Shown: positions 12,199 to 55,889, counted from the stretch's first letter. The stretch: DNA of 64,000 nucleotides from Promethearchaeota archaeon (GCA_016839585.1 JAEOTZ010000072.1:87355-151354); one strand, 5' to 3'. Numbers and translations: made by a program. Notes: a model not told the origin generated them from the sequence alone.

Positions 12199-12377
12199 TC
12201 ACCATCATATTTTTATTTCTTAAACTTATTTTTTTATTTTTTATATTTAAGATATTTCAAATATCTAGCCAATTTTTAGAATGTAGTTATATCTTTAATG
12301 TTAACTATTTTTAATCGTTGAATTTAAAAAATTATTTTATAAAGAAGATAAATAAAAATAAATTAAGATTCAAAACG

Positions 12378-13724
12378 TTAATCTTTTATTTTAAATTCAT
12401 CTTTTGGGGCTCCACATTCAGGACATTTGAAATTTTGAAGTAAATCTTTGAAAAGAACATCCATTTTAGCCTCATCATACTCCATACCACAGTTCGAACA
12501 GATATAAGTGTATAATTCTAATAATTTTTTCAACTCATCTCTGTTAACATCTTCTTCCATCTTATTATACACGAAAGGCATAGCTTTATTTTCACCAAAT
12601 AGAATTGCTCCTTTAAGTTTATTATCTTTTAAGACTAATTTTTGATAGCAGCAATCTTTTTTATCAGCTTTTTTAAGAATCTCCCAGCTCCCCCCTTCTT
12701 CCTTAGTAGGATCTATCGTTCCTATTGAAGTTAATTCTAATCCAACAATTTTGAGCGTATTTTTGGGAGTAGTTCCCTTATAATCTGTTTTTTTAAGTCC
12801 TAGCACAGATGAAGCTGCTATTTTTGATTGTTCCATACAGGCAGGAATAATGCCCCAAATTTGATTTTTATATTCTATACAATCCCCAACAGCATAAATA
12901 TCTTTTTCACTAGTTTCTAAAAATTCATTTACAATAATGCCTTTATTTGTATGAATATTTACTTCTTTAGCTAAATCTATTGTAGGTCTTATACCTGCTT
13001 GTATTAAAACAATATCAGCATCTAATGTTTGTCCATCTTTTAATTTAATCCCAGTGACTCTACCATTTCCTAAAATTTCTTGAGTAGCAGCATCTAAGAC
13101 TACTTTTATTCCGCGGCTTTCAACCTCTTCTTTTAACATAGTACCACATTCTTCATCTAGTTGTCTTGGTAATAATCGAGGGAAGAATTCTACAACTGTG
13201 GTTTCTAAATTGTAATCTTTTATTTGATTAGCCAGTTCTAGACCAAGTAAACCCCCACCAATAACAATTGCTTTCTCGACTGCAAATTTCTTTATGTAAT
13301 CTCGAATTTCTAAAGCATCATTTATGCTCCGCAATGTGAATACTCCTTTTTTTTCTGTTTTCATTTCTGAAGCATTTTTTATTGGTGGAATGTTAGGAAC
13401 ACTCCCCAATGCCAGAATGAGTTTATCATATGAAAAAGGGGTTTTCTCTCCCTCAATATAAATAATTTTATTGTTTGGATCAATTTTATTTACCTTTTTA
13501 TTCAGACTTAATTTCAAATTTTTATTCTTGTACCACTCATCCTTAAAAACAATTAAATCGTCAATTCTAACTTTTTTAGAAATTAATTCCGGTAATTTAA
13601 CTCTTGTATAGTAAGGATAATTTTCTTGGGTGAATATCTCAATCTCTATTTCATTATTAAGATATCTAATATTCTGTGCTGTAAATGTCCCGGCAACATT
13701 GTTCCCTATAATTACAACTTTCAT
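12378..13724 (-). CDS. NAD(P)H:rubredoxin oxidoreductase-like flavoprotein with C-terminal rubredoxin domain
   Basis: VIIGNNVAG, GGGLLGLE, IYAVGDC; C-terminal CSNCG...CPECG. Confidence 0.88.
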   Translation of the reverse strand: MKVVIIGNNVAGTFTAQNIRYLNNEIEIEIFTQENYPYYTRVKLPELISKKVRIDDLIVFKDEWYKNKNLKLSLNKKVNKIDPNNKIIYIEGEKTPFSYDKLILALGSVPNIPPIKNASEMKTEKKGVFTLRSINDALEIRDYIKKFAVEKAIVIGGGLLGLELANQIKDYNLETTVVEFFPRLLPRQLDEECGTMLKEEVESRGIKVVLDAATQEILGNGRVTGIKLKDGQTLDADIVLIQAGIRPTIDLAKEVNIHTNKGIIVNEFLETSEKDIYAVGDCIEYKNQIWGIIPACMEQSKIAASSVLGLKKTDYKGTTPKNTLKIVGLELTSIGTIDPTKEEGGSWEILKKADKKDCCYQKLVLKDNKLKGAILFGENKAMPFVYNKMEEDVNRDELKKLLELYTYICSNCGMEYDEAKMDVLFKDLLQNFKCPECGAPKDEFKIKD

Positions 13725-48160: not shown

Positions 48161-49177
48161 TTAATATTTTGAAGGAGTCTTTGTTTTAATTTTGTATTTT
48201 GGGATAGTTTTAGCCTTTCTTAATTCTTTTTCAAAATCTCTTTTTTCTCTTAGAAACCTCTCCTTGTCTCTTTCTAATTTTTCTCTTTCCCGTTTTATTG
48301 TATTTTTCTCATTATGTATCATTGATTTTTCTTTTTCCAATTTTTTATACTCATTATTTAGTCTTCTAAGTTTTTCCTCTAAGTCAGGAATTTTGCGTGT
48401 TAATGTGTAATACTGATCTTCTGCAAGAGGAACTTTTCTATTTAACTCTTTTAATCTTGCTTGTTGTTCCCGTTTTCTCTTTTCCAAAGCGTTTCCATCC
48501 CTTTCTACTTTATCTCTATATTTTTTCAGATCTACTTTTTTCTTATCAATTTCACTAGCTTTTAGATTTAAATCTTTTATTTTATAATGAGCTTTTTCTC
48601 TATCTTCTTTTAATTTTTGCTTTTCATCAGAAATTCGATTTTTTTCACCAAAAATCTCCCTCCTAAAGTTATCAATTTCCGTATTTAAATTATCTCTTTC
48701 TTTGGTTAGATGCTTAATTTCGTTCCTTAAATCCATTAATTTATTTTCTAAATCGTTAATAGTTCTCTTTAAAGCACTTTCTCTTCTTTCCATGTTAGGT
48801 ATTTTAGTTTTAATTCGTTTAATCCTTTCTAAATCATCTCGAATTCTTTCTAATTGTCTTTCTTCCTCATCCAAATGATGTTTTTTATCAAAAATATTAT
48901 TTTGTAGGTTAGTTATTTCATCTCGTAATTTATCACGATTATTAGAAAGATTTCTTATCTCTAATTCGGTCTGTTTTCTTTTCCTCTCAAGCTCATTTAG
49001 GTTGTTATTATACCCTTCCATTTGTTCGAGAACTTTCTGCCATTCACCTTTTTCTTTATTTAACTTTTTTCTCTCTTCTCTAATTTTATTTAGCAATTTC
49101 TTATCTGGTATTAATTCTAAATACTCATCTGGTGTTTTTTCATGAATTTCATATTTAGGAGGTATCTTATCTTTCAT
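48161..49177 (-). CDS. Long coiled-coil protein, unknown function
   Basis: About 290 aa of near-continuous K/E/R/L heptads; no ATPase motif or TM. Confidence 0.7.
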   Translation of the reverse strand: MKDKIPPKYEIHEKTPDEYLELIPDKKLLNKIREERKKLNKEKGEWQKVLEQMEGYNNNLNELERKRKQTELEIRNLSNNRDKLRDEITNLQNNIFDKKHHLDEEERQLERIRDDLERIKRIKTKIPNMERRESALKRTINDLENKLMDLRNEIKHLTKERDNLNTEIDNFRREIFGEKNRISDEKQKLKEDREKAHYKIKDLNLKASEIDKKKVDLKKYRDKVERDGNALEKRKREQQARLKELNRKVPLAEDQYYTLTRKIPDLEEKLRRLNNEYKKLEKEKSMIHNEKNTIKREREKLERDKERFLREKRDFEKELRKAKTIPKYKIKTKTPSKY

Positions 49178-49360
49178 ATTTATTCATTTTTCTTAAAAAT
49201 ATATTATTAAACTTAAAAATGGGTTGATTAATAAAGATTTTAATTTATTCTTATGAGATATTTTATTAAAATCTATTTATATAGAATAATTTCTATTATT
49301 TATATAAAATCATCCCTAAATAAAAGTAAAAGTCAATTATTAAATAAATGGTGTAGAATG

Positions 49361-49744
49361 ATGGGATTTGATGACGAATTTGATGAGGATTTCGATGAAG
49401 AATTAGAATTTGATGAAGATTTAGAAGAATTAAGTTCTAAAACTCCAGACGATAAAGTTGAATCTAAAACTCCTGTTGTTAAAACTATTCCTGAAGGGAA
49501 AAAGATTTCAGTATATTTTATGTCTACTATTGGTCCAGGTGAGAAAAAACAAAAATTACTTATAAATTCAGGAAATCATGTTGGAGATATTAAAGAAACT
49601 GTAGCAAATTTATTTGGTTTAGATCCTGTTGATTTTCATTTATCTTCAGGTGGAGTAACTATGGATGAGAGTTTTCCTTTAAAAGATTATAATGTGAATG
49701 ATGGAGATGACATACTTTTAATTCCTGCAAGTACTGCTGGTTAA
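49361..49744 (+). CDS. Ubiquitin-like modifier, copy 1 (acidic N-tail, C-terminal ...STAG)
   Basis: Beta-grasp pattern VGDIKETV..LFGL....FHLSSGG..MDE..PLKDYNVNDGDDILL; terminal Gly. The upstream ORF-track extension is AT-rich promoter-like DNA; GGTG SD before ATG 49358/49361. Confidence 0.85.
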   Translation: MGFDDEFDEDFDEELEFDEDLEELSSKTPDDKVESKTPVVKTIPEGKKISVYFMSTIGPGEKKQKLLINSGNHVGDIKETVANLFGLDPVDFHLSSGGVTMDESFPLKDYNVNDGDDILLIPASTAG

Positions 49745-49788
49745 ATCGTTCAAAAGAGTAAATGTTTTTAAAATTAGAGCCTCTATTT

Positions 49789-50583
49789 TTAATCTTTTTC
49801 TTTTCTTGATGGGATTAGAGCAATTTCATCATCATCATCTATATCATAGTCTTTTATTTGTGAGTTTTCGTGCAATAATATACCTCCAGAGGATAACAGA
49901 AAATCTTTTAAATTGTAATTAAATAATATCCCTACTCTTTCTTTCACTACACTTATTAACTCAATAGTGTTAACAATAATTATTTTCGTTTTTTCGCCCG
50001 GCTCAACTAATGATCTTATATAAATTCGGAGCTGGTCTTCCATTTTAATAGGATTCATTGGTGGTATATATATTATCTCCTCATCAGTTTTATCCTTGCT
50101 TTTCAACATATTTTCTATTAAACTTTTCCTCTCATTTGGGTCAAAATATAACATTTCCCTAATAAACACTATTTTATCCATTTTTGATAATCCTAAAAGG
50201 TTTATTTTATCTAATTCTTCCTGATTAAAAACTGAAAATATATATTTGTCTATTACAGGAATATTTTCATGTGATTCATTTGATGTAATGTATTCTTCTA
50301 TTGAAGGCATTGTATCGATATAATTTTCAATAATATCTACTATTTTCTTTTTAATCGGCTTTTGTTTAGCAAAATATTTCTTTTCTCTTATCTTTCTGTC
50401 TTGACTATCTTTGGAGTGTAAGACAGTATAGATAGTACTTGTGGATAATACTGCGACACTACCAATAGTCAAGAAGAGAAATAAAGGAATACTTTCTATC
50501 TGTAATAGGAAAAAAAACATATAGATTAAAAGAAAAATACTATAAAGAGTTATAACACTTAAAATTCTGTATTTGTTTCTCAT
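49789..50583 (-). CDS. 2-TM membrane protein with C-terminal ubiquitin-like domain lacking terminal Gly
   Basis: Two N-terminal TM; C-terminal PGEK...VKERV..LF...FLLSSGG...ENSQIKDY...LIPSRKEKD aligns to both Ubls. Confidence 0.8.
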   Translation of the reverse strand: MRNKYRILSVITLYSIFLLIYMFFFLLQIESIPLFLFLTIGSVAVLSTSTIYTVLHSKDSQDRKIREKKYFAKQKPIKKKIVDIIENYIDTMPSIEEYITSNESHENIPVIDKYIFSVFNQEELDKINLLGLSKMDKIVFIREMLYFDPNERKSLIENMLKSKDKTDEEIIYIPPMNPIKMEDQLRIYIRSLVEPGEKTKIIIVNTIELISVVKERVGILFNYNLKDFLLSSGGILLHENSQIKDYDIDDDDEIALIPSRKEKD

Positions 50584-50668
50584 AATTTTTTAATTAAAGT
50601 ATTTTCTGAATTTTAAATAAATAATTTAAAATATAAATTCCATTGGAATAAAATTGGAGTTTTTATAT

Positions 50669-51340
50669 TCATACACCTTGAATTGATTTTTTAACTTTAG
50701 AATATTTCTCTGAGTCTAATTTAAATCCATTTCTATTTTTAATTTTTTCAATTTTAATTAATTTCAGGTTTTTTAAAATATCGATATATTTCTTAATAGT
50801 ACTGTGATTTTTTTTTAAGCTATTTGCTATATCTGTAATTTTTAATGCTTTATTTTCTTTCTTCATAAAATTAATTAATTTTTGAACGATTTCTTTATTT
50901 AAATAAAAGTAAAACTCATCAAGTTCAGAATTTGACTCAAATTTGAAGAAAATTCTATGATTATTGATTTTTTTTGATCGAATAAATTGAAATTTTTCTA
51001 GACATGATAAATGCCATAAAGCTTGATTACTTCCGATATTTAGAGCTTTCATTATTCCATTAATATTTGAAGGTTTTCTTTTAATATAATTAAATATCTC
51101 ATTCCTTTTTGGATGCTCAACGATATTATTTTTCATTAATCTAGTTCCCGGGATAATAACTCGCCTTTTAATTAAATCCTTTAAGATTAATTCTATTCTA
51201 TTCTCATTTATATTAGGATTGTACCTTACTCTATTATTTATAAATGATATGATCTCTCTTATTGAAAAGAAAGTTTTTTTTGTTAAATACTCTCTTACTA
51301 ATTCAAGAACAACAGATTCTGCATTATCCAGAAAACTCAT
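50669..51340 (-). CDS. Multi-winged-helix (ArsR-like) transcriptional regulator
   Basis: HPKRNEIFNYI...WHLSCLEK and ITDIANSLKKNHSTIKKYIDILKNLKLI. Confidence 0.78.
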   Translation of the reverse strand: MSFLDNAESVVLELVREYLTKKTFFSIREIISFINNRVRYNPNINENRIELILKDLIKRRVIIPGTRLMKNNIVEHPKRNEIFNYIKRKPSNINGIMKALNIGSNQALWHLSCLEKFQFIRSKKINNHRIFFKFESNSELDEFYFYLNKEIVQKLINFMKKENKALKITDIANSLKKNHSTIKKYIDILKNLKLIKIEKIKNRNGFKLDSEKYSKVKKSIQGV

Positions 51341-51614
51341 AAGCCTATACTTTCACTATGTTAATAAATCTAATTTTTATAATTATATACTCTCTCTAAA
51401 ACCATAATTTATGTATTATATATATTAATAGACATTCATACAATTTATACTATAATTTCTTAAGAATCCAATGTGTTTCTTTTTATTTTTGATAAAACCT
51501 TAAAAAACTTCAAAATCATTCCATAGGGTTTTATTATATCTTCTTAATGCCATTTTATTAAGTTTTAAAAAAAAATTATAAAATTTTAAAAAACCAAAAT
51601 TGGAAGTGATTTGA

Positions 51615-51947
51615 ATGAGTTTTGATGAATTTGATGAAGATTTGGTTGGGGAAGAACCAGTAAAATCTAAAACTCCCGCAACTAAAACCCCTTCAGCAGG
51701 AAAGAAATTAACTCTATATTTCATGTCAACTATTGGTCCTGGTGAAAAGAAGGAGAAATTAACTGTGAATGATGCTAATCATGTAAGTGATATTAAGCAA
51801 ACATTAGGGAATTTATTTGGACTTGACCCTAATGATTTTCATATATCATCTGGCGGAGTTACAATGGATGAAAATAGTCAATTAAAAGACTATAGTGTAA
51901 GTGATGGAGACGATATTCTTTTGATCCCTGCGAGTACTGCTGGGTAA
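51615..51947 (+). CDS. Ubiquitin-like modifier, copy 2 (C-terminal ...STAG)
   Basis: 63/82 identity to copy 1 over the core by hand alignment; first gene of the E1-E2-JAMM-RING run. Confidence 0.88.
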   Translation: MSFDEFDEDLVGEEPVKSKTPATKTPSAGKKLTLYFMSTIGPGEKKEKLTVNDANHVSDIKQTLGNLFGLDPNDFHISSGGVTMDENSQLKDYSVSDGDDILLIPASTAG

Positions 51948-51979
51948 ACTTATATAATTTTCTTCATAAATTATAATAT

Positions 51980-52008
51980 AAGGGCTTAAAGCCCTTTATT
52001 TTTTTTTT
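51980..52008 (+). terminator. Hairpin plus T-tract between Ubl2 and E1
   Basis: AAGGGCT-TAA-AGCCCTT followed by TATTTTTTTTTT. Confidence 0.55.
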
Positions 52009-52027
52009 ATTTTTTAAATATATAATA

Positions 52028-53263
52028 ATGGTGATTATATTGGATAAGGATTCAGACTTTTTTACAAAAGAATTATCAGTGGAAGAGAGAGATTTATACG
52101 ATCGTCAATTCCGTCTTGAAGGCTGGTCCCAGAAATTAGTAAAAAACACCAGAGTATTAATAGTAGGAGTTGGAGGTTTAGGATGTGAAATTGCTAAAAA
52201 CTTAGCCATGCTTGGTGTTGGTCACTTAGATCTCGTTGATTTAGATATTATTGAACATTCTAATTTGAACCGTCAAATACTTTTTACAGGAGCGAAGATA
52301 GGAGAGCCTAAAGTAGTGGTTGCTGCTAGAAAACTAACTGAAATTAATCCTAATGTTATTATTAAGGGATATCATACTTCTCTAGAAAGGTTAAATCCTG
52401 CTGTATATCAAGCTGCTGATGTTGTTATAGGAGGTCTTGATTCTATGAATGCACGACTTAACTTAAATGCACAATGCATAAGGTTTAAAAAGCCATTAGT
52501 AGATGGAGGTGTATCTGGTTATTATGGTCACGTATACACTATCTTCCCTTATCAAAATGCTTGTTATGAGTGCAATCCATTACCAGTAGTAGAGGGTGAT
52601 GAGATGGCTGCTTGTACAGTGGTTGGGGTCCCCAGAAAAAGGATTCATTGCCTTTTTAAAGGAGATATGGCATTTAAAGAAAACTTTGACAGAGATCCTA
52701 ATCCAAAAGATATAAATGATATTAAGTTTATTCAAAAGGTCGCAAATGAATTGGTGAATAAACATAATTTCTTACCTGAATACACAGAAGATGACATTGT
52801 GAAAATTATTGATAGACATGATCCTGGTATAATAACTATAAATGCAATTATTTCTGCTTTACAATCACATGAAGCAATAAAAATTCTACATTGGAAAGAA
52901 GGTCATAAAGGATTAGGTGAACCTATTAAAAGTTATGTTATCTTTAATGCAATGACAATGAAATTTTACCATATTGAGAAACATAGGAATCCAGAATGTT
53001 CTCAGTGTGGTAGAAGTGTTCGAAGAGTATCTATAAAATTAAGATCTCAATCACCTTGCATAAATATAATTAAAATATTAGAGAAAAATGGTTTTGAATT
53101 GGATCCTGATTATGAACCTGTTCTAACTTTATTAGATTTCAATGATATTAAAATTGTAGATTTAGAAAAGAATCCAATTGAAAATGGGTTAAGAAATTAT
53201 GAATTCATAACTAGTGCTGGATTTAAAGATGGAGAGATTTTTGTAACCTTAAAATTAAAATAA
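52028..53263 (+). CDS. Ubl-activating enzyme E1 (ThiF domain; UBA3/UBA2-like catalytic Cys region)
   Basis: LYDRQ, VGVGGLGCE, D.IEHSNLNRQ, CYEC...ACTVVGVPR..IHC, CSQC; ~85-aa C-terminal extension. Confidence 0.92.
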   Translation: MVIILDKDSDFFTKELSVEERDLYDRQFRLEGWSQKLVKNTRVLIVGVGGLGCEIAKNLAMLGVGHLDLVDLDIIEHSNLNRQILFTGAKIGEPKVVVAARKLTEINPNVIIKGYHTSLERLNPAVYQAADVVIGGLDSMNARLNLNAQCIRFKKPLVDGGVSGYYGHVYTIFPYQNACYECNPLPVVEGDEMAACTVVGVPRKRIHCLFKGDMAFKENFDRDPNPKDINDIKFIQKVANELVNKHNFLPEYTEDDIVKIIDRHDPGIITINAIISALQSHEAIKILHWKEGHKGLGEPIKSYVIFNAMTMKFYHIEKHRNPECSQCGRSVRRVSIKLRSQSPCINIIKILEKNGFELDPDYEPVLTLLDFNDIKIVDLEKNPIENGLRNYEFITSAGFKDGEIFVTLKLK

Positions 53264-53339
53264 AAATTTAATCAAAAAATATTTTCTATAAAAATTTAAA
53301 ATAAAAAATTAATTAATATGAAAAAAAAGGGTTGAGAAT

Positions 53340-53867
53340 ATGAGTATAAGAAGTAGTAGAATTTCCCAAGATTTTGGGGGATTAAAAAAAATGTTAAAAG
53401 AAGGATCTATTGTTCAATTAAAACCTTTTAATCCTAAAAAGAAGAGTATTGATCACTTAGCCATCTCTTTTAGAGGACCTAAAGGGACAGTATATTCAGG
53501 TGGTCTTTTTAGATTGGAAATGAAATTTCCTGCTCAATATCCTAAACAACCTCCTTTTGTAAGAATGCATACTCCAATTTGGCATCCAAATTTTTGGCCA
53601 AAACCGAGTGAATATAAAGGACAGAGAAATATTTGTTTAGCATTAGTAGATCCCTCTTTAGTTGGTAAAAAAGGTGGATGGAGTCCATCAAAAACCGCTG
53701 TCACGATTGTTCAAGCAATAATTGCTATGTTAAACACCCGTGGTAAGTACGTAAATCCAACAGATGTTTTTAATAAAAAAGCAGCATTAGAAATGATTAA
53801 AAATCCTAAATTTTTCGATAAAAAAGTCAAAAACTTAGTTAAAAAGTATGCTAATGAGAAATGGTGA
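53340..53867 (+). CDS. Ubiquitin-conjugating enzyme E2 (UBC fold)
   Basis: GPKGTVYSGGLF, FPAQYPKQPP, TPIWHPN...ICL...WSPS. Confidence 0.93.
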   Translation: MSIRSSRISQDFGGLKKMLKEGSIVQLKPFNPKKKSIDHLAISFRGPKGTVYSGGLFRLEMKFPAQYPKQPPFVRMHTPIWHPNFWPKPSEYKGQRNICLALVDPSLVGKKGGWSPSKTAVTIVQAIIAMLNTRGKYVNPTDVFNKKAALEMIKNPKFFDKKVKNLVKKYANEKW

Positions 53868-54690
53868 AAATTTAATGAATTATGATAATAATAATAATAA
53901 TAGTAATTTAATCAAAGAAGCAATAAAACATAAAATTAAGGAAAAAATTAAAAAAGAACTGCTTGAAGAGATATATACTGAATTAAAATCAGAAGAAGAA
54001 TTGATAGATGAAATAACTTCTGAATTTAGTCAAAATAAGCCTTCAGATCATACCAAAAAAATTAACATTACACATGAGAATTCATCAAAAGAATCAGAAA
54101 TAGCATATATTAAACATAATGACACTGAAGCCAAGATAACTATAACAGTTAAAGCTATTCTTAAGATAGCAAGCCATTCTTTAAAATATGCTCACTCTAA
54201 GATCCCAAGGGAGGATTGGGTTGAAGTGATAGGGTTACTTGCCGGCAATTTAGATAATTCTGGGCGTATTCTTCATATAGAAGATGCTTATCCAATGGGT
54301 CATGGTACAGCTGTTTATGCTGAAATTAAAGATTATAAAAATTATGTGAGAGCTTTTAAAGATATTAAGAGGAATAAATTATACATCTGTGGATGGTATC
54401 ATTCTCATCCATCTTATGGGTGTTTTATGTCTAATGAAGATATAGGAACTCAAGCTAGATATCAAAAATTATGGGATAAGGCTATTGCTCTTGTTATAGA
54501 TCCATATCAAATTGATGGTACTTCATTAGGATTTGAGATTTATCGTGCAAATATCAGAACAAAAAAATGGTTTTCTTTACCATATAATATAAAAGGGTAT
54601 TTAGATGTTCGAATGTTGCCTGAAATCTTGGCATTTATGAATCCTATTATTGAGGGGAAACCTGTTTACTTGGAATATGATGAAGATTAA
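53848..54690 (+). CDS. JAMM/MPN+ isopeptidase (Rpn11/CSN5-like)
   Basis: EVIGLLAG, GWYHSHPSYGCFMSNEDI..Q, ALVIDP; start may be 53875. Confidence 0.92.
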   Translation: MLMRNGENLMNYDNNNNNSNLIKEAIKHKIKEKIKKELLEEIYTELKSEEELIDEITSEFSQNKPSDHTKKINITHENSSKESEIAYIKHNDTEAKITITVKAILKIASHSLKYAHSKIPREDWVEVIGLLAGNLDNSGRILHIEDAYPMGHGTAVYAEIKDYKNYVRAFKDIKRNKLYICGWYHSHPSYGCFMSNEDIGTQARYQKLWDKAIALVIDPYQIDGTSLGFEIYRANIRTKKWFSLPYNIKGYLDVRMLPEILAFMNPIIEGKPVYLEYDED

Positions 54691-54719
54691 ATTCTTTAAT
54701 ATGTGGTGATTCTTAAACC

Positions 54720-55889
54720 ATGGTGAAAACTAAAACTGTTGCGATATCATTAATTATCTTTTTAATCATAGGCATAATCCATGGTGCTATTTTAGACTCA
54801 TTTAATGTATTTGTAACTTGGTTATTAATTGGTTTATGGATAATATTTACTATTAAAATTTTAGAAAATGTAAAACGTCACCGCGAATTTAATTCACCAC
54901 ACAATACTGCCTTTTTTGTCATAATCCCTTTATTTATCGGAATTTTTTACTCTATTTGGGGTTATTTTACCGGTATTCTGGCTGAAAACCTTCTAGAGGG
55001 TTCAGATCTATATTTTAGTTGGTGGAGTATCATTTTTGGATTTCCATTTGTATTATATGGCGCTCATTCTTTATATCGTTGTTTTAAGAAATATAATGTT
55101 ATTTATTTTGGAACGAAATCAATAAAAGCTAGGTTATTTGGATATATTTTAACCTTTATTGTTCTTCTTTTTATAATATTTTATTGGATTATTTTTTATA
55201 CTGTTATTGAATTCTATAATTTTCCATTAATCCCGCTTCACTTCTCTGTAGATCTTAACCTTTTATTATTATTCATAATTACAATATTGATATTAATTGT
55301 TTTTGGATTTATTAGTTCACAAAGACCATTGCCAACATTAACTCGTGATTATATAGCACAACGTACTAGGAGAATAAATTCATTAACATCTCCTACTGCA
55401 TTATCTTCGCCTAGAAGACAAAGACAAACTGTAAGTACAACAATTAGATCAACACCAACATCTAGAAATATATCTCGAACAACAAGATCAAGTACTCAAT
55501 CATCAAGAACAACACCAACTTCACATAGACAAACAAATAGAACAAGAACAACAAAAACTACCCAAACTAGAAGTGTAAAACCAACATCAAAAAGTCGAGA
55601 TCTAAATAGATATAAGCCAATAGGATCATATCTATCACAGGACGATTTTAAATGTATTTTTTGTTTTAAATTACCAAAACTTCCTGAGGATAGAGGGAGA
55701 GGGATAATCTTGTGCCCACATTGTAGATACCCAGCACATGCAGATGAATTTAAAGATTGGTTACGAACCTCAAATCTGTGTTCACGATGTAGTACCCCTA
55801 TTCCATCTACCTTTAAAAGTAATCCTAGGATAATTAGTGTAAAGGATTATTTAATTATCTATAGACATTTTTTAAGAAAAAAGAACTAG
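54720..55889 (+). CDS. Polytopic membrane protein with C-terminal RING-variant finger (putative E3 ligase)
   Basis: About 6 TM, S/T/R-rich linker, CIFC-x16-CPHC-x4-HADE..W....CSRC. Confidence 0.8.
   Translation: MVKTKTVAISLIIFLIIGIIHGAILDSFNVFVTWLLIGLWIIFTIKILENVKRHREFNSPHNTAFFVIIPLFIGIFYSIWGYFTGILAENLLEGSDLYFSWWSIIFGFPFVLYGAHSLYRCFKKYNVIYFGTKSIKARLFGYILTFIVLLFIIFYWIIFYTVIEFYNFPLIPLHFSVDLNLLLLFIITILILIVFGFISSQRPLPTLTRDYIAQRTRRINSLTSPTALSSPRRQRQTVSTTIRSTPTSRNISRTTRSSTQSSRTTPTSHRQTNRTRTTKTTQTRSVKPTSKSRDLNRYKPIGSYLSQDDFKCIFCFKLPKLPEDRGRGIILCPHCRYPAHADEFKDWLRTSNLCSRCSTPIPSTFKSNPRIISVKDYLIIYRHFLRKKN

Follow-up and report, generated by a model that had tools for sequence, protein, structure and literature searches.

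A probable eukaryote-type ubiquitin-like conjugation cascade with a membrane-embedded candidate ligase in Asgard archaea

The window analysed here, a stretch of 64,000 nucleotides from a Promethearchaeota archaeon of Loki type, contains a five-gene core (51615-55889, plus strand) whose products are a ubiquitin-like modifier (Ubl), E1 and E2 enzymes, a JAMM protease and a RING-like membrane protein with six helices. Judged from the sequences of the locus and its relatives, these proteins probably make up a functional eukaryote-type Ubl conjugation cascade with its ligase in the cytoplasmic membrane. Four further genes adjoin the core (Table 1); they encode a coiled-coil protein, a second Ubl, a membrane protein in which two helices precede a C-terminal Ubl domain, and a tandem winged-helix (wHTH) protein. 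All nine ORFs described in an initial annotation of the window were found in place, and domains were assigned to all five core genes, in agreement with its claim of a complete Ubl system. No description of this cassette variant was found in the searchable literature.

Table 1 Features of the locus, in window coordinates
Feature	Position	Strand	Basis
Coiled-coil protein, 338 aa, candidate substrate or scaffold	48161..49177	-	ORF
Ubl2, second free modifier, about 128 aa	49358..49744	+	ORF, Pfam PF00240 E 1.7e-4
Membrane-anchored Ubl paralog, 264 aa	49789..50583	-	Hydropathy, 10-ortholog alignment, profile
Promoter-proximal element upstream of membrane-Ubl gene	50637..50659	-	Element comparison
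Tandem winged-helix protein, 223 aa, putative transcription regulator	50669..51340	-	Pfam
Promoter block about 107 nt upstream of Ubl1	51508..51540	+	10 aligned intergenic regions
Ubl1, ubiquitin-type modifier, 110 aa	51615..51947	+	ORF, Pfam, model
E1 activating enzyme, 411 aa	52028..53263	+	ThiF 3.6e-61 (Pfam)
E2 conjugating enzyme, 175 aa	53340..53867	+	UQ_con 6.2e-24 (Pfam)
JAMM/Rpn11-like isopeptidase, 280 aa as ORF	53848..54690	+	JAB 8.6e-16 (Pfam)
Polytopic membrane RING-variant protein, candidate E3, 389 aa	54720..55889	+	Model, invariant columns, last operon gene

The order Ubl-E1-E2-JAMM-TM-RING was kept in Lokiarchaeia, Borrarchaeum-like and Hodarchaeales genomes. Nine GTDB families contributed 28 further loci with identical gene order, far beyond chance; the gene linkage, for which a synteny search had been proposed, holds across Asgard classes. 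The Ubl ending in Ala-Gly (AG-type) was found in 123 of 301 Asgard genomes of a sampled set. Within its own family the cassette was near-universal (60/68 genomes), Ubl identity was 83-96% across hundreds of clusters and the chromosomal neighbourhood was fixed (ftsZ-like, mptA, cofGH), indicating a housekeeping pattern and not a defence island. An anti-virus module of the bacterial Bil or CBASS-Cap2/Cap3 kind, tagging viral proteins, would also contain the four enzyme classes Ubl, E1, E2 and JAB, and the E1 core matched PADLOC 'E1-E2' models at up to 1.9e-18, with weak matches for the JAB protein. However, PADLOC matches covered no more than the generic adenylation core and were absent for the Ubl, E2 and RING protein, and the distribution described above speaks against such a role, which we consider very improbable.

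Ubl1 has a disordered N-terminal tail of ~30 residues, in which an acidic stretch (FDEFDEDL) precedes VKSKTPATKTP, a beta-grasp core (residues 31-105, core pLDDT about 90 in the model) and the C-terminus IPASTAG. The Pfam ubiquitin model PF00240 matched Ubl1 at 25.8 bits (cut-off 25.4) and all 36 members of the Ubl family, whereas Pfam Ufm1 matched none of the 36 and nothing in the genome. Similarly, the best fold match of the Ubl1 model was Caldiarchaeum ubiquitin, and UFM1 was absent from the top 50 fold matches. The second copy, Ubl2, was confirmed and is 69% identical to Ubl1, with a longer, acidic N-tail carrying two SKTP motifs; its orthologs occur in genera g1 and g4. Its start had been placed at 49253, from where the ORF is open, but the ATG at 49358, with GGTG 5 nt ahead, is most likely. 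In both free Ubls the stop codon directly follows LLIPASTAG, and the PASTAG end, stopping exactly after Gly, was present in 116 of 120 close Ubl1 homologs. The AG end reported for this modifier is conserved family-wide: the C-terminus reads IP-x-S-T-A-G (I104, P105, S107, A109 and G110 invariant, n = 36 sequences), and tails of 1-6 residues extend beyond Ala-Gly in 13 of the 36 diverse members. This invariance and the short tails indicate that exposure of the terminal Gly matters.

A motif of the Ubl tails, psi-x-[S/E]-K-T-P, recurs in the coiled-coil protein encoded, as had been reported, alongside the cassette. This protein matched only generic coiled-coil models in Pfam and carries the motif near both ends (IHEKTP, 11-16; IKTKTP, 330-335), an arrangement found in 13 of 15 readable orthologs. 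Among the 3,083 ORFs of the genome, psi-x-[STE]KTP occurred 14 times, five of them in the coiled-coil protein, Ubl2 and Ubl1, and it was conserved in orthologs; only four proteins of the genome, including the coiled-coil protein, contained at least two [STE]KTP. The coiled-coil gene adjoins the cassette divergently in families f1, f2 and f18, and was not found next to it in Hodarchaeales and three other families.

The E1, E2 and JAMM genes of the co-directional run have the expected Pfam domains, with catalytic residues kept. E1 has a ThiF adenylation core and a catalytic-Cys insert of the eukaryotic type, with Cys196 lying in AACTxVGxPRKxxHC. C179/C182/C324/C327 form a Zn tetrad, and the C-terminal domain, about 85 aa long, is possibly an E2-recruiting fold. 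The closest solved relatives of E1 were the eukaryotic UBA2 (1.9e-38), UBA1 and UBA3, with UBA5 much weaker (2.4e-16). E2, whose closest solved relatives were eukaryotic UBCs, is a canonical UBC protein with HPN and the catalytic Cys99, between which lies an invariant family-specific insert (FWPKP-x-EY-x-G-x-R); 48 columns were invariant among 28 orthologs, and this E2 type is encoded in 187 species genomes. The JAMM motif is complete (E126, H185-S-H187, S195, D198) and follows an N-terminal extension about 90 aa long; the best PDB match was the Caldiarchaeum Rpn11-like protein 6fjv (5e-18), followed by Rpn11 and CSN5. The JAMM gene may start at 53875 and not at 53848 as given. Across 28 orthologs from nine families there was no change in C196 or the Zn tetrad of E1, in HPN or C99 of E2, or in the E, HxH, S and D residues of JAMM. 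Together with the conserved linkage, this fits the earlier proposal of a dedicated, self-contained, membrane-linked Ubl pathway. By their sequences, E1, E2 and Ubl are of the ubiquitin/SUMO/NEDD8 type and not of the UFM1 type.

E1 also matched MoeB/ThiF models, and FO and pterin biosynthesis genes lie immediately downstream of the cassette, as might be expected of a sulfur carrier of the MoaD/ThiS/SAMP-MoeB type, with the Ubl thiocarboxylated for cofactor or tRNA thiolation. Against this stand the conservation of E2, the RING-like protein and JAMM in the operon, an E1 with a eukaryote-type catalytic-Cys insert but no rhodanese domain, and a ubiquitin-type Ubl with a disordered tail. We find a sulfur-carrier role scarcely credible.

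The candidate E3 is encoded by the last gene of the operon, a position kept in every family. The AF2 model comprises six TM helices (2-25, 28-56, 64-84, 101-123, 137-165 and 179-198), a linker rich in Arg, Ser and Thr (about 205-292; modelled as disordered over 223-292) and a confident C-terminal RING-like domain (295-388), placed in the cytoplasm. The polytopic architecture proposed for this protein was borne out, since TM segments and a C-terminal RING variant were present in 64 of 65 full-length members. The RING assignment stood in part. The domain model aligned to RING/U-box structures with Z 6-7.8 (3lrq: Z 7.8, rmsd 4.2, 75 aligned; RNF4: Z 6.1, rmsd 2.6, 68 aligned), and its profile matched RNF4, RNF24 and other RING-H2 proteins at E 5e-4 to 5e-2. 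However, no Pfam RING model reached threshold (zf-RING_2, 9.9 bits here and 25.8 bits in the best ortholog) and only 7 of the 8 ligands (C312, C315, C332, C335, H340, E343, C354, C357) are canonical. Glu occupied position 6 in 97 of 98 representatives, and the conserved Trp (W347 here) was present in 98 of 98. To our knowledge, ligand 6 is Cys or His in every classical RING. Possibly one zinc site is incomplete, and the domain may serve only as a tether for E2.

A model of the E2:RING complex, suggested as a check in the initial annotation, scored 0.73 against 0.01 for the best control. Among solved complexes 58 of 80 attained this mark, as did 2 of 110 mismatched pairs, although the model may pass because the predictor has learned solved E2-RING pairs. 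The runs agreed in at least 97% of contacts, with partner pLDDT of at least 87. The modelled interface (E2 3-10, 68-69 and 108-117 against RING 19-23, E49, W53 and 56-64) would dock the RING-like domain on the canonical E2 surface; this is a likeness and not a proof, because many E2-RING complexes are already solved. Conjugation could instead be driven by E2 and guided by a motif, as in SUMO/Ubc9, with the membrane protein acting as an anchor, receptor or substrate and not as a catalytic E3. The Glu ligand and the sub-threshold Pfam scores would fit such a scheme, as would the rare lysine motif common to the Ubl tails and the coiled-coil protein, the invariant insert beside the catalytic Cys of E2 and an E1 nearest to the SUMO E1. 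We nevertheless consider it unlikely: the RING fold, the conserved Trp and the E2-contacting loop residues are kept, the domain is modelled on the canonical E2 surface and the gene closes the operon in every family. The six-helix membrane protein is the probable ligase. Differences from known systems had been claimed for this locus, among them the AG end and the polytopic E3 candidate; these two and the Glu-RING are family-wide, being traits that define a whole Asgard family and not peculiar to the locus.

The membrane-tethered Ubl paralog and the divergent wHTH regulator of the initial annotation were both recovered. In the former, two hydrophobic TM helices at the N-terminus are followed by a conserved spacer, about 120 aa long, and then by the ubiquitin-like C-terminal domain; the profile of residues 184-259 aligned to ubiquitin, and phmmer matched the protein to Ubl1/2 at about 1e-15. 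It ends in IPSRKEKD, and a terminal Gly was found in 0 of 10 aligned orthologs, so it is not conjugatable as encoded. The wHTH protein, ArsR/SdpR-like, matched HrcA_DNA-bdg (35.9 bits, cut-off 21) and HTH_5 (32 bits, cut-off 22); its gene is read away from the Ubl operon and lies upstream of the membrane-Ubl gene. The wHTH protein and the membrane Ubl occur together in 9 of 9 loci having either and, because they are confined to a few Loki genera, lie outside the ancestral system.

The locus pairs a polytopic RING protein with a Ubl-domain protein anchored by a hairpin, and the tag has a single-Gly end as in UFM1; these traits recall ERAD and UFMylation. In an archaeal forerunner or analogue of these, membrane proteins that are misfolded or stalled would be marked by the RING protein, then extracted and degraded, with the membrane-anchored Ubl in the role of Herp/Usa1/TMUB1. 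This analogy, drawn earlier for the locus, was not upheld and appears quite unlikely. Ubl, E1 and E2 are not of the UFM1/UBA5/UFC1 type (the Ubl is ubiquitin-type, the UBA5 match weak and E2 of the HPN-Cys kind). The TM domain had no specific structural or sequence match among solved proteins including Hrd1, whose match (Z 6.7, rmsd 5.3) is within the noise of helical bundles, and it has six helices, not eight. The locus holds no Cdc48, derlin, proteasome or ribosome-linked gene, and the membrane Ubl and wHTH protein are not ancestral.

Upstream of Ubl1, a conserved block reads CTTCAAAATCATTCCA, then the TATA-like TTTTATTATAT, and is a candidate operator overlapping BRE/TATA. Its 16-mer is unique in the 3.45 Mb genome; among the other 30 loci it was found upstream of Ubl1-type genes of genera g1 and g4, which carry the wHTH gene, two stand-alone g1 Ubl copies (L022, L039) included. 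In the wHTH loci of g6 and g7 (L027, L029), all forms of it are diverged. The membrane-Ubl gene has CTCCAATTTTATTCCA upstream, which leads into the palindrome ATTCCAATGGAAT and a TATA-like TTTATAT, and an equivalent copy lies in the same place in L012, L021 and L023; by count alone, the second operator-like match is not significant (at least two matches in 30 of 100 shuffles). An element common to the Ubl operon and the membrane-Ubl gene suggests their joint regulation and lends some support to the description of the pathway as regulated. More speculatively, the membrane Ubl is probably an adaptor or decoy at the membrane.

The eukaryotic SUMO pathway uses SAE1/SAE2, Ubc9 and consensus-motif conjugation, and the N-terminal tail of SUMO serves for chains. 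Similarly, the E1 described here is nearest to SAE2 by sequence, and the Ubl has a flexible N-tail with a conserved lysine motif, repeated in the candidate substrate. The motif is, however, psi-x-[S/E]-K-T-P and not psi-K-x-E, the end TAG and not TGG, and the E3 candidate a membrane RING variant and not an SP-RING. As in the eukaryotic polytopic ligases Hrd1/synoviolin and MARCH/Doa10 (RING-CH), a multi-pass membrane domain is combined with a cytoplasmic RING. The ligands follow the spacing of C4HC3 (RING-CH/PHD-like) domains, CxxC-x(n)-CxxC-x4-H-x2-[C]-x(n)-CxxC, and the Trp lies four residues beyond ligand 6; unlike in those ligases, ligand 6 is Glu and the RING is C-terminal, after the six helices.

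The Caldiarchaeum subterraneum operon of Rpn11, Ub, E2-like, E1-like and small RING finger genes has been reconstituted in vitro (PMC5654768, PMC6043591). Both systems have an operonic Ub-type modifier, a single-chain E1, a UBC E2, a RING-type protein and an Rpn11-like JAMM, and Caldiarchaeum proteins are the best solved matches of our JAMM and Ubl. In contrast, the modifier here ends in Ala-Gly instead of Gly-Gly and has a ~30-residue tail with SKTP motifs, E1 carries a Cys insert of the eukaryotic type as well as a C-terminal domain, and in place of a small soluble RING there is a Glu variant joined by a long disordered linker to six TM helices. In Helarchaeia, an ESCRT-linked E1/E2/RING E3 cascade modifies UEV-Vps23 (bioRxiv 10.1101/2023.07.25.550441), and ESCRT-linked ubiquitin gene clusters are known from Asgard archaea (PMC9192718). 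An E1-E2-RING cascade and a pro-ubiquitin needing C-terminal trimming are common ground, but the ESCRT-linked system has a di-glycine ubiquitin, a soluble RING and ESCRT clusters, whereas our cassette has no ESCRT neighbour in the locus and coexists with a separate GG-type system. The GG-type Ubl of this genome has its own E1, E2 and JAMM, so cross-use with the AG cassette is not needed; that system too uses polytopic, RING-like membrane proteins. Asgard Ufm1 homologues have been reported (PMC12962969). Like UFM1, our Ubl has a single C-terminal Gly after a small residue and IP-x4-G spacing, but E1 and E2 are canonical, unlike those of the UFM1 system (UFM1, UBA5, UFC1, UFL1).

Drawing on conserved residues and homology to tested systems for the chemistry, we hypothesize that E1 would adenylate the exposed C-terminal Gly110 of the Ubl and load it on Cys196, from where it would be handed over to Cys99 of E2. 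The cytoplasmic RING variant would bind charged E2 via its canonical helix-1/loop-4/loop-7 surface, and the flexible linker of about 90 residues would give reach to lysines of membrane or membrane-proximal proteins, a targeting that we infer solely from the ligase architecture. The Rpn11-like JAMM would trim the short tails after Ala-Gly in some relatives and reverse conjugation. More speculatively, the psi-x-[S/E]-K-T-P motifs of the Ubl N-tails and coiled-coil ends may mark acceptor lysines, which would allow chains to form and provide a built-in substrate or scaffold, and the wHTH protein and the membrane-anchored, non-conjugatable Ubl domain may be a lineage addition. Membrane-located ubiquitin-style tagging is probably older than eukaryotes.

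The source genome (3.45 Mb, 99% complete, G+C ~30%) carries in the window a run of five co-directional genes encoding a ubiquitin-like modifier (Ubl1), an E1, an E2, a JAMM protease and a hydrophobic RING protein, with four further genes of alternating orientation upstream of this core cassette. Open reading frame and Pfam analyses recovered all nine genes listed in the initial annotation, whose inventory was correct.

Coordinates and properties of the genes and segments described. Positions without a prefix are window positions; G000 is the source genome, C-numbers are its contigs and L-numbers are fetched loci.
Feature	Position	Strand	Length	Remarks
Coiled-coil protein	48161-49177	-	338 aa	
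Ubl2 (free)	ORF 49253-49744; likely start 49358			GGTG 5 nt before start
Membrane Ubl	49789-50583	-	264 aa	Two N-terminal TM helices, C-terminal Ubl domain
Tandem winged-helix (wHTH) protein	50669-51340	-		Upstream of Ubl1
Core cassette	51615-55889	+		Intergenic gaps 80, 76, ~0 and 29 nt
Ubl1 (modifier)	51615-51947	+	110 aa	Pfam ubiquitin PF00240, 25.8 bits (cut-off 25.4)
E1	52028-53263	+	411 aa	Pfam ThiF, 3.6e-61
E2	53340-53867	+	175 aa	Pfam UQ_con (PF00179), 6.2e-24
JAMM protease	53848-54690	+	280 aa	Pfam JAB, 8.6e-16
Hydrophobic RING protein	54720-55889	+	389 aa	Pfam and NCBIfam: nothing at threshold
TM6-RING linker	55335-55595		~90 residues (~205-292)	Arg/Ser/Thr with SP/TP dipeptides
Second complete Ubl system (L121)	G000:C89:35406-42841			
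C89 JAMM			170 aa	
C89 E1			292 aa	Without Cys insert or C-terminal domain
C89 E2			185 aa	~29% identical to the window's E2
C89 Ubl			88 aa	Ends ...VIGG-YYKQ
C89 polytopic membrane proteins (three)				C4C4-type RING-like C-termini
Third Ubl fragment (L122)	G000:C39:7230-7370	-		Ends ...VMATQAGG; cut by contig end
E2 paralog (L123:1980-2527)	G000:C5:67982-68463	-		HPN...NICLDL, GW-x-PSKT
Protein with E2/UEV/RWD-like repeats (L124)	G000:C12:478-2226	-	583 aa	C-terminal Cys/His-rich finger
Motif-bearing protein	G000:C25:52140-52667	-	176 aa	
Ubl-ending protein, type 1	L015:11575-13083	-	~500 aa	
Ubl-ending protein, type 1	L035:2264-3715	+	~500 aa	
Ubl-ending protein, type 2	L028:12770-13657	+	~250-300 aa	
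Ubl-ending protein, type 2	L032:11203-11967 and 12265-13155	+	~250-300 aa	

The core cassette is a conserved family and not a local oddity. Ubl1 has 868 homologous clusters; the best 120 of these are 83-96% identical, and 116 of the 120 have the exact ...PASTAG end. The Ubl was present in 123 of 301 sampled Asgard genomes, distributed by GTDB family as f1 60/68, f2 5/7, f7 22/28, f16 9/11, f18 4/5, f24 18/21 and f30 2/2, and was not found in the searched genomes of f9 (0/76), f14 (0/19) and f29 (0/11). Exact look-ups identified f24 as Hodarchaeales/Heimdallarchaeia and placed f18 with Candidatus Borrarchaeum. A pattern scan detected the E2 type IWHPNFW...EYxGxRNIC in 187 stretches of species-representative genomes. 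The initial annotation had made its proposal depend on a gene linkage conserved in relatives, and this linkage holds in several Asgard families: the order Ubl-E1-E2-JAMM-TM-RING was kept wherever the contig reaches in 28 loci from Ubl-bearing families, the exception being f7, where the cassette is split into E2-JAMM-RING and Ubl-E1 parts ~1.5 kb apart. The chromosomal neighbourhood consists of housekeeping genes and is fixed across genera.

Three individual assemblies showed other arrangements or labels. On the closed Promethearchaeota chromosome CP070831.1, separated cassette parts lie at 663-680 kb (L011) and 560-573 kb (L050), the Ubl, the accessory genes and the E1 start being ~100 kb away from the E2 gene. 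The E1 reading frame of L011 enters masked bases, and the split may be a real rearrangement or an effect of assembly or masking. Locus L082 (DATKTW010000176.1) carries the label Candidatus Nanopelagicaceae bacterium; its E2 shares 85% identity with that of the window, and the contig is most likely of Asgard origin and mis-binned. Genome G207 (loci L027 and L028) has the main cassette on one contig and, on another, a separate module with a membrane Ubl, a wHTH gene, a tailed Ubl (PASTAG-YE) and a shorter RING-protein paralog (226-aa ORF).

The AF2 model of the modifier, built with 36 family members, showed a disordered segment (residues 1-30) followed by a confident beta-grasp core (pLDDT ~90). 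Its best fold match was the Caldiarchaeum ubiquitin (E 5e-7), followed by ISG15, SUMO1, NEDD8 and ubiquitin, and Pfam ubiquitin matched 36/36 family members. The C-terminal di-glycine is absent and the modifier ends in S-T-A-G; Ile104, Pro105, Ser107, Ala109 and Gly110 are invariant in the 36 sequences, 13 of which carry 1-6 extra residues after the Gly (K, M, VW, IYY or SSNRS, for example). Such tailed pro-forms are sensible only if exposure of the Gly matters. Of the arguments from sequence, this is the strongest for Ala-Gly as a real conjugation end and for trimming by the JAMM protease. JAMM trimming of a tailed ubiquitin has been demonstrated for Caldiarchaeum (PMC6043591). Within the flexible tail, Lys19 and Pro21 of an S-K-T-P motif are conserved family-wide.

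Relatives also encode larger proteins, adjoining the cassette, that end in the same Ubl with (S/A)-x-A-G intact. Those of type 1 have a region resembling a P-loop ATPase by eye only (YVDE and ATQNP motifs), and those of type 2 combine a CxxC domain at the N-terminus with a coiled coil and SK(T/Q/E)P repeats. Such a C-terminal Ubl might allow whole proteins to be conjugated.

E1, E2 and JAMM look competent and ubiquitin/SUMO/NEDD8-like from their sequences. Across 28 orthologs, residues invariant or nearly so include E1 Cys196, in the motif AACTxVGxPRKxxHC that surrounds the catalytic Cys of eukaryotic E1s, the E1 zinc tetrad C179/C182/C324/C327 with the NLNRQ and GLD motifs, the HPN and Cys99 of E2, and Glu126, H185-S-H187, Ser195 and Asp198 of JAMM. 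An invariant insert, FWPKP-x-EY-x-G-x-R, sits between the HPN and Cys99 in the same E2 orthologs. The nearest solved relatives of E1 were UBA2 (1.9e-38), UBA1 and then UBA3 (~1e-34 over 300 residues), those of E2 were Ubc15, Cdc34, UBE2T and Ubc9, and those of JAMM were the Caldiarchaeum Rpn11-like enzyme (5e-18) followed by Rpn11 and CSN5. Judged by these conserved residues only, the enzymes would form a thioester cascade leading to isopeptide conjugation.

The initial annotation had likened the locus to UFMylation, an analogy left without specific support by the tests on Ubl, E1 and E2, all of which went against the UFM1 type. The UFM1 profile PF03671 had no match among the 36 Ubl family members (E <= 10) or in the genome (E <= 1), and UFM1 structures were absent from the 50 best fold matches of the Ubl. 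A UBA5-type E1 with a UFC1-type E2 was likewise rejected: the UBA5 match to E1 reached only 2.4e-16, far below UBA2, and UFC1-type E2s have no HPN motif, which is invariant in the E2 found here. Structure-based 'Ufm1' homologues have been reported in nine Asgard clades (PMC12962969); by the tests applied, the Ubl described here is not UFM1-like. A defence operon (Bil, or CBASS Cap2/Cap3) was also rejected, as PADLOC matched only the E1 adenylation core and, weakly, the JAB domain, with no match to the Ubl, E2 or RING protein, and as the fixed housekeeping surroundings do not look like a defence island.

The only RING-like domain of the cassette is not a small soluble protein; it is the end of the 389-aa six-helix protein that we consider the ligase candidate. 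In its AF2 model (25 sequences, mean pLDDT 75), six long helices in residues 1-200 precede a disordered Arg/Ser/Thr-rich segment (223-292) and a confident C-terminal domain (295-388, pLDDT 80-92). Basic residues flank both ends of the helical part, so the positive-inside rule predicts a cytoplasmic location for the linker and the C-terminal domain. Orthologs keep the composition of the linker, not its sequence, and it may serve as a flexible tether, as a region for phosphorylation or as a partner of the acidic Ubl tail.

The C-terminal domain has the invariant pattern CxxC-x(13-16)-CPxC-xxPAH-xxE-xxxW-x6-CxRC, which corresponds to C4HC3 spacing with the Trp typical of RINGs, but with Glu343 at ligand position 6. 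Seven of the eight zinc ligands are thus conserved (C312, C315, C332, C335, H340, C354 and C357), one short of the eight-Cys/His cross-brace that defines RING finger E3 ligases. The Pfam zf-RING_2 profile gave 9.9 bits for the window's copy and at most 25.8 bits in an ortholog (cut-off 27.3). The family profile matched RNF4 and RNF24 (E ~1e-3), EL5, RNF165, listerin and, weakly, synoviolin. The RING/U-box fold is present in the model, of which residues 303-389 aligned to many RING/U-box domains at Z 6-7.8, including 3lrq (Z 7.8, rmsd 4.2, 75 aligned residues), Ring1b (7.1, 3.4, 70) and RNF4 (6.1, 2.6, 68). Foldseek with the full-length model ranked RING/U-box entries on top, none at E <= 0.001. 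In a profile search of 1.8 billion representatives, 104 clusters passed E <= 1e-10, and in all of them the domain lies at the very C-terminus. Among the best 100 of these, 98 match the motif, and of the 98, 97 have Glu at ligand 6 and all have the Trp. In the same 100, three or more hydrophobic segments, most often six, are present in 64 of the 65 proteins with a length of 340 aa or more. The Ala-Gly end and the polytopic RING, presented at first as peculiarities of this locus, are therefore both family-wide traits.

As modelled, the membrane part of the RING protein is without a specific relative. Foldseek on the full model gave nothing at E <= 0.001 for residues 1-200, and the Atlas yielded no usable match by features and only the protein's own unannotated cluster by shape. 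VIA-wide returned matches only at the level of helical bundles. The Hrd1 membrane domain (9z0e_C) aligned at Z 6.7 (rmsd 5.3, 144 residues) and ranked among designed helical bundles and unrelated proteins; of the Hrd1 partners, Hrd3, Der1, Usa1 and Cdc48, none is encoded in the locus. The proposed analogy to ERAD accordingly found no specific support.

Co-folding of the E2 (28-row alignment), the RING domain (27 rows) and two zinc ions gave a complex with a score of 0.73, as compared to 0.01 for the best control; of 80 solved complexes 58 attain this mark, and of 110 mismatched pairs 2 do. Runs agreed in at least 97% of contacts, with partner pLDDT of at least 87. The modelled interface involves helix 1, residues 68-69 and the W-S-P-S loop (108-117) of the E2 and, in domain numbering, I19-K23, Glu49, Trp53 and 56-64 of the RING, and is predicted to be the textbook E2-RING surface. 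The initial annotation had suggested multimer modelling of this pair, and in the model the two dock; since many E2-RING complexes have been solved, this outcome may reflect likeness to them, and the model indicates resemblance to an E2-binding RING, not binding. We consider a working E1-E2-RING cascade at the cytoplasmic face of the membrane, with JAMM acting in maturation and reversal, to be the best-supported reading and probably the correct one. Degradation, trafficking and scaffold assembly are all possible outcomes of the tag.

A further route to refutation, envisaged at the outset, was that the window's E1 and E2 prefer a GG ubiquitin encoded elsewhere. A GG-type ubiquitin does exist on contig C89, as part of a second complete Ubl system whose E1 is ~37% identical to that of the window, but it has its own enzymes there, which weakens this route. 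The polytopic RING-like proteins of C89 indicate that membrane RINGs are a general habit of the organism.

Other related genes are scattered in the genome. The Ubl fragment on C39 adjoins a PIN/VapC-like pair; the remainder of its gene and the genes beyond it are absent from the assembly. The E2 paralog on C5 is interrupted between FEIKFPE and NYPFQPP by ~30 nt with a stop codon and a frameshift, which may reflect a pseudogene, an error of assembly or a short intervening sequence. The protein on C12 contains several E2/UEV/RWD-like repeats, with two sub-threshold PF00179 matches.

In families f1, f2 and f18 the coiled-coil gene is a divergent neighbour of the Ubl gene; it was not found adjoining the cassette in f7, f16, f24 and f30 loci. 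Its product contains IHEKTP near the N-terminus and IKTKTP five residues from the C-terminus, and 13 of 15 readable orthologs have the motif at both ends. The lysine motif psi-x-[STE]KTP occurs 14 times in the 3,083 ORFs of the genome, five of these in the coiled-coil protein, Ubl2 and Ubl1. Just four proteins carry at least two copies of [STE]KTP, and three of these are encoded in this locus. The other psi-x-[STE]KTP sites are mostly inside ordinary enzymes and look like chance. We hypothesize that the motif is an acceptor site. The main mechanistic rival to the RING-driven cascade builds on this motif: conjugation would be motif-guided and E2-driven, with the membrane protein as a mere anchor, and is to be weighed against the modelled E2-RING docking.

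A more elaborate reading, which we regard as rather unlikely, is a SUMO-like, motif-directed tagging system that makes a membrane scaffold at the Asgard cell membrane. The acceptor-lysine consensus would be psi-x-[S/E]-K-T-P, recognized by the E2 with its invariant insert near Cys99. Ubl chains would be built through Lys19 of the modifier's own tail, and the tethered RING would cross-link or decorate the coiled-coil protein at the membrane, resulting in a regulated, reversible protein scaffold under the membrane. If this were true, the core common to Hodarchaeales would place the root of membrane-bound RING ligases before eukaryotes.

The only other motif-bearing ORF resembling a membrane-proximal candidate substrate was the 176-aa protein on C25, which by eye shows a basic N-terminal region with IRSKTP and a hydrophobic segment close to the C-terminus.

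The wHTH and membrane-Ubl genes co-occur in 9/9 loci carrying either and are confined to four Loki genera, which suggests a late addition to the cassette. The membrane Ubl keeps the LIP core, and none of its copies has the Gly end. A 16-mer, CTTCAAAATCATTCCA, lies 107 nt upstream of Ubl1 beside a TATA-like box and is unique in the genome. In genera g1 and g4, which have the wHTH gene, it is conserved ahead of Ubl1-type genes; the wHTH loci of g6 and g7 have only diverged forms, and genera without the wHTH gene lack it. The 85-nt gap that precedes the membrane-Ubl gene contains a related copy, which continues into the palindrome ATTCCAATGGAAT and a TATA-like box; copies are found at this same place in three orthologous loci. 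The element count in the window was not significant (2 matches with at most 2 mismatches, 1.06 expected; 30 of 100 shuffles gave at least 2), and the intergenic region between the coiled-coil gene and Ubl2 showed nothing similar. The case for an operator-like element therefore comes from position and conservation in orthologs, not from the count. This gives moderate support to joint regulation of the Ubl operon and the membrane-Ubl gene, with the wHTH protein as putative regulator.

Archaeal Ub/E1/E2/srfp/Rpn11 operons and an Asgard E1/E2/RING cascade have been published, and eukaryote-like ubiquitin operons are known in Aigarchaeota and Asgard archaea and have been reconstituted (PMC5654768, PMC6043591, bioRxiv 10.1101/2023.07.25.550441, PMC9192718). 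The cassette described here resembles the Caldiarchaeum/Asgard ubiquitylation operons in its beta-grasp ubiquitin modifier, E1 with a catalytic Cys, HPN E2 and Rpn11-like JAMM. Unlike those operons, which have a Gly-Gly tag and a small soluble RING, it has an Ala-Gly tag and a membrane-embedded ligase candidate, and these, together with the lysine motif in the tag and its neighbour, set the family apart from published archaeal ubiquitin operons. The searchable literature, with most subscription journals outside its scope, contained no Ala-Gly modifier, polytopic Glu-RING or KTP motif in Asgard operons, a silence that argues weakly for novelty.

Within one Lokiarchaeial family the cassette is nearly universal, and its core is also present in Hodarchaeales, thought to be among the closest archaeal relatives of eukaryotes. 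All its parts are small enough for expression, which makes the question testable, and Lokiarchaeia can now be grown in culture. In eukaryotes, ERAD, endocytic sorting and organelle quality control all build on ubiquitin marking of this kind at membranes. If the cassette works as proposed, ubiquitin-style marking at membranes would have arisen before the endomembrane system.
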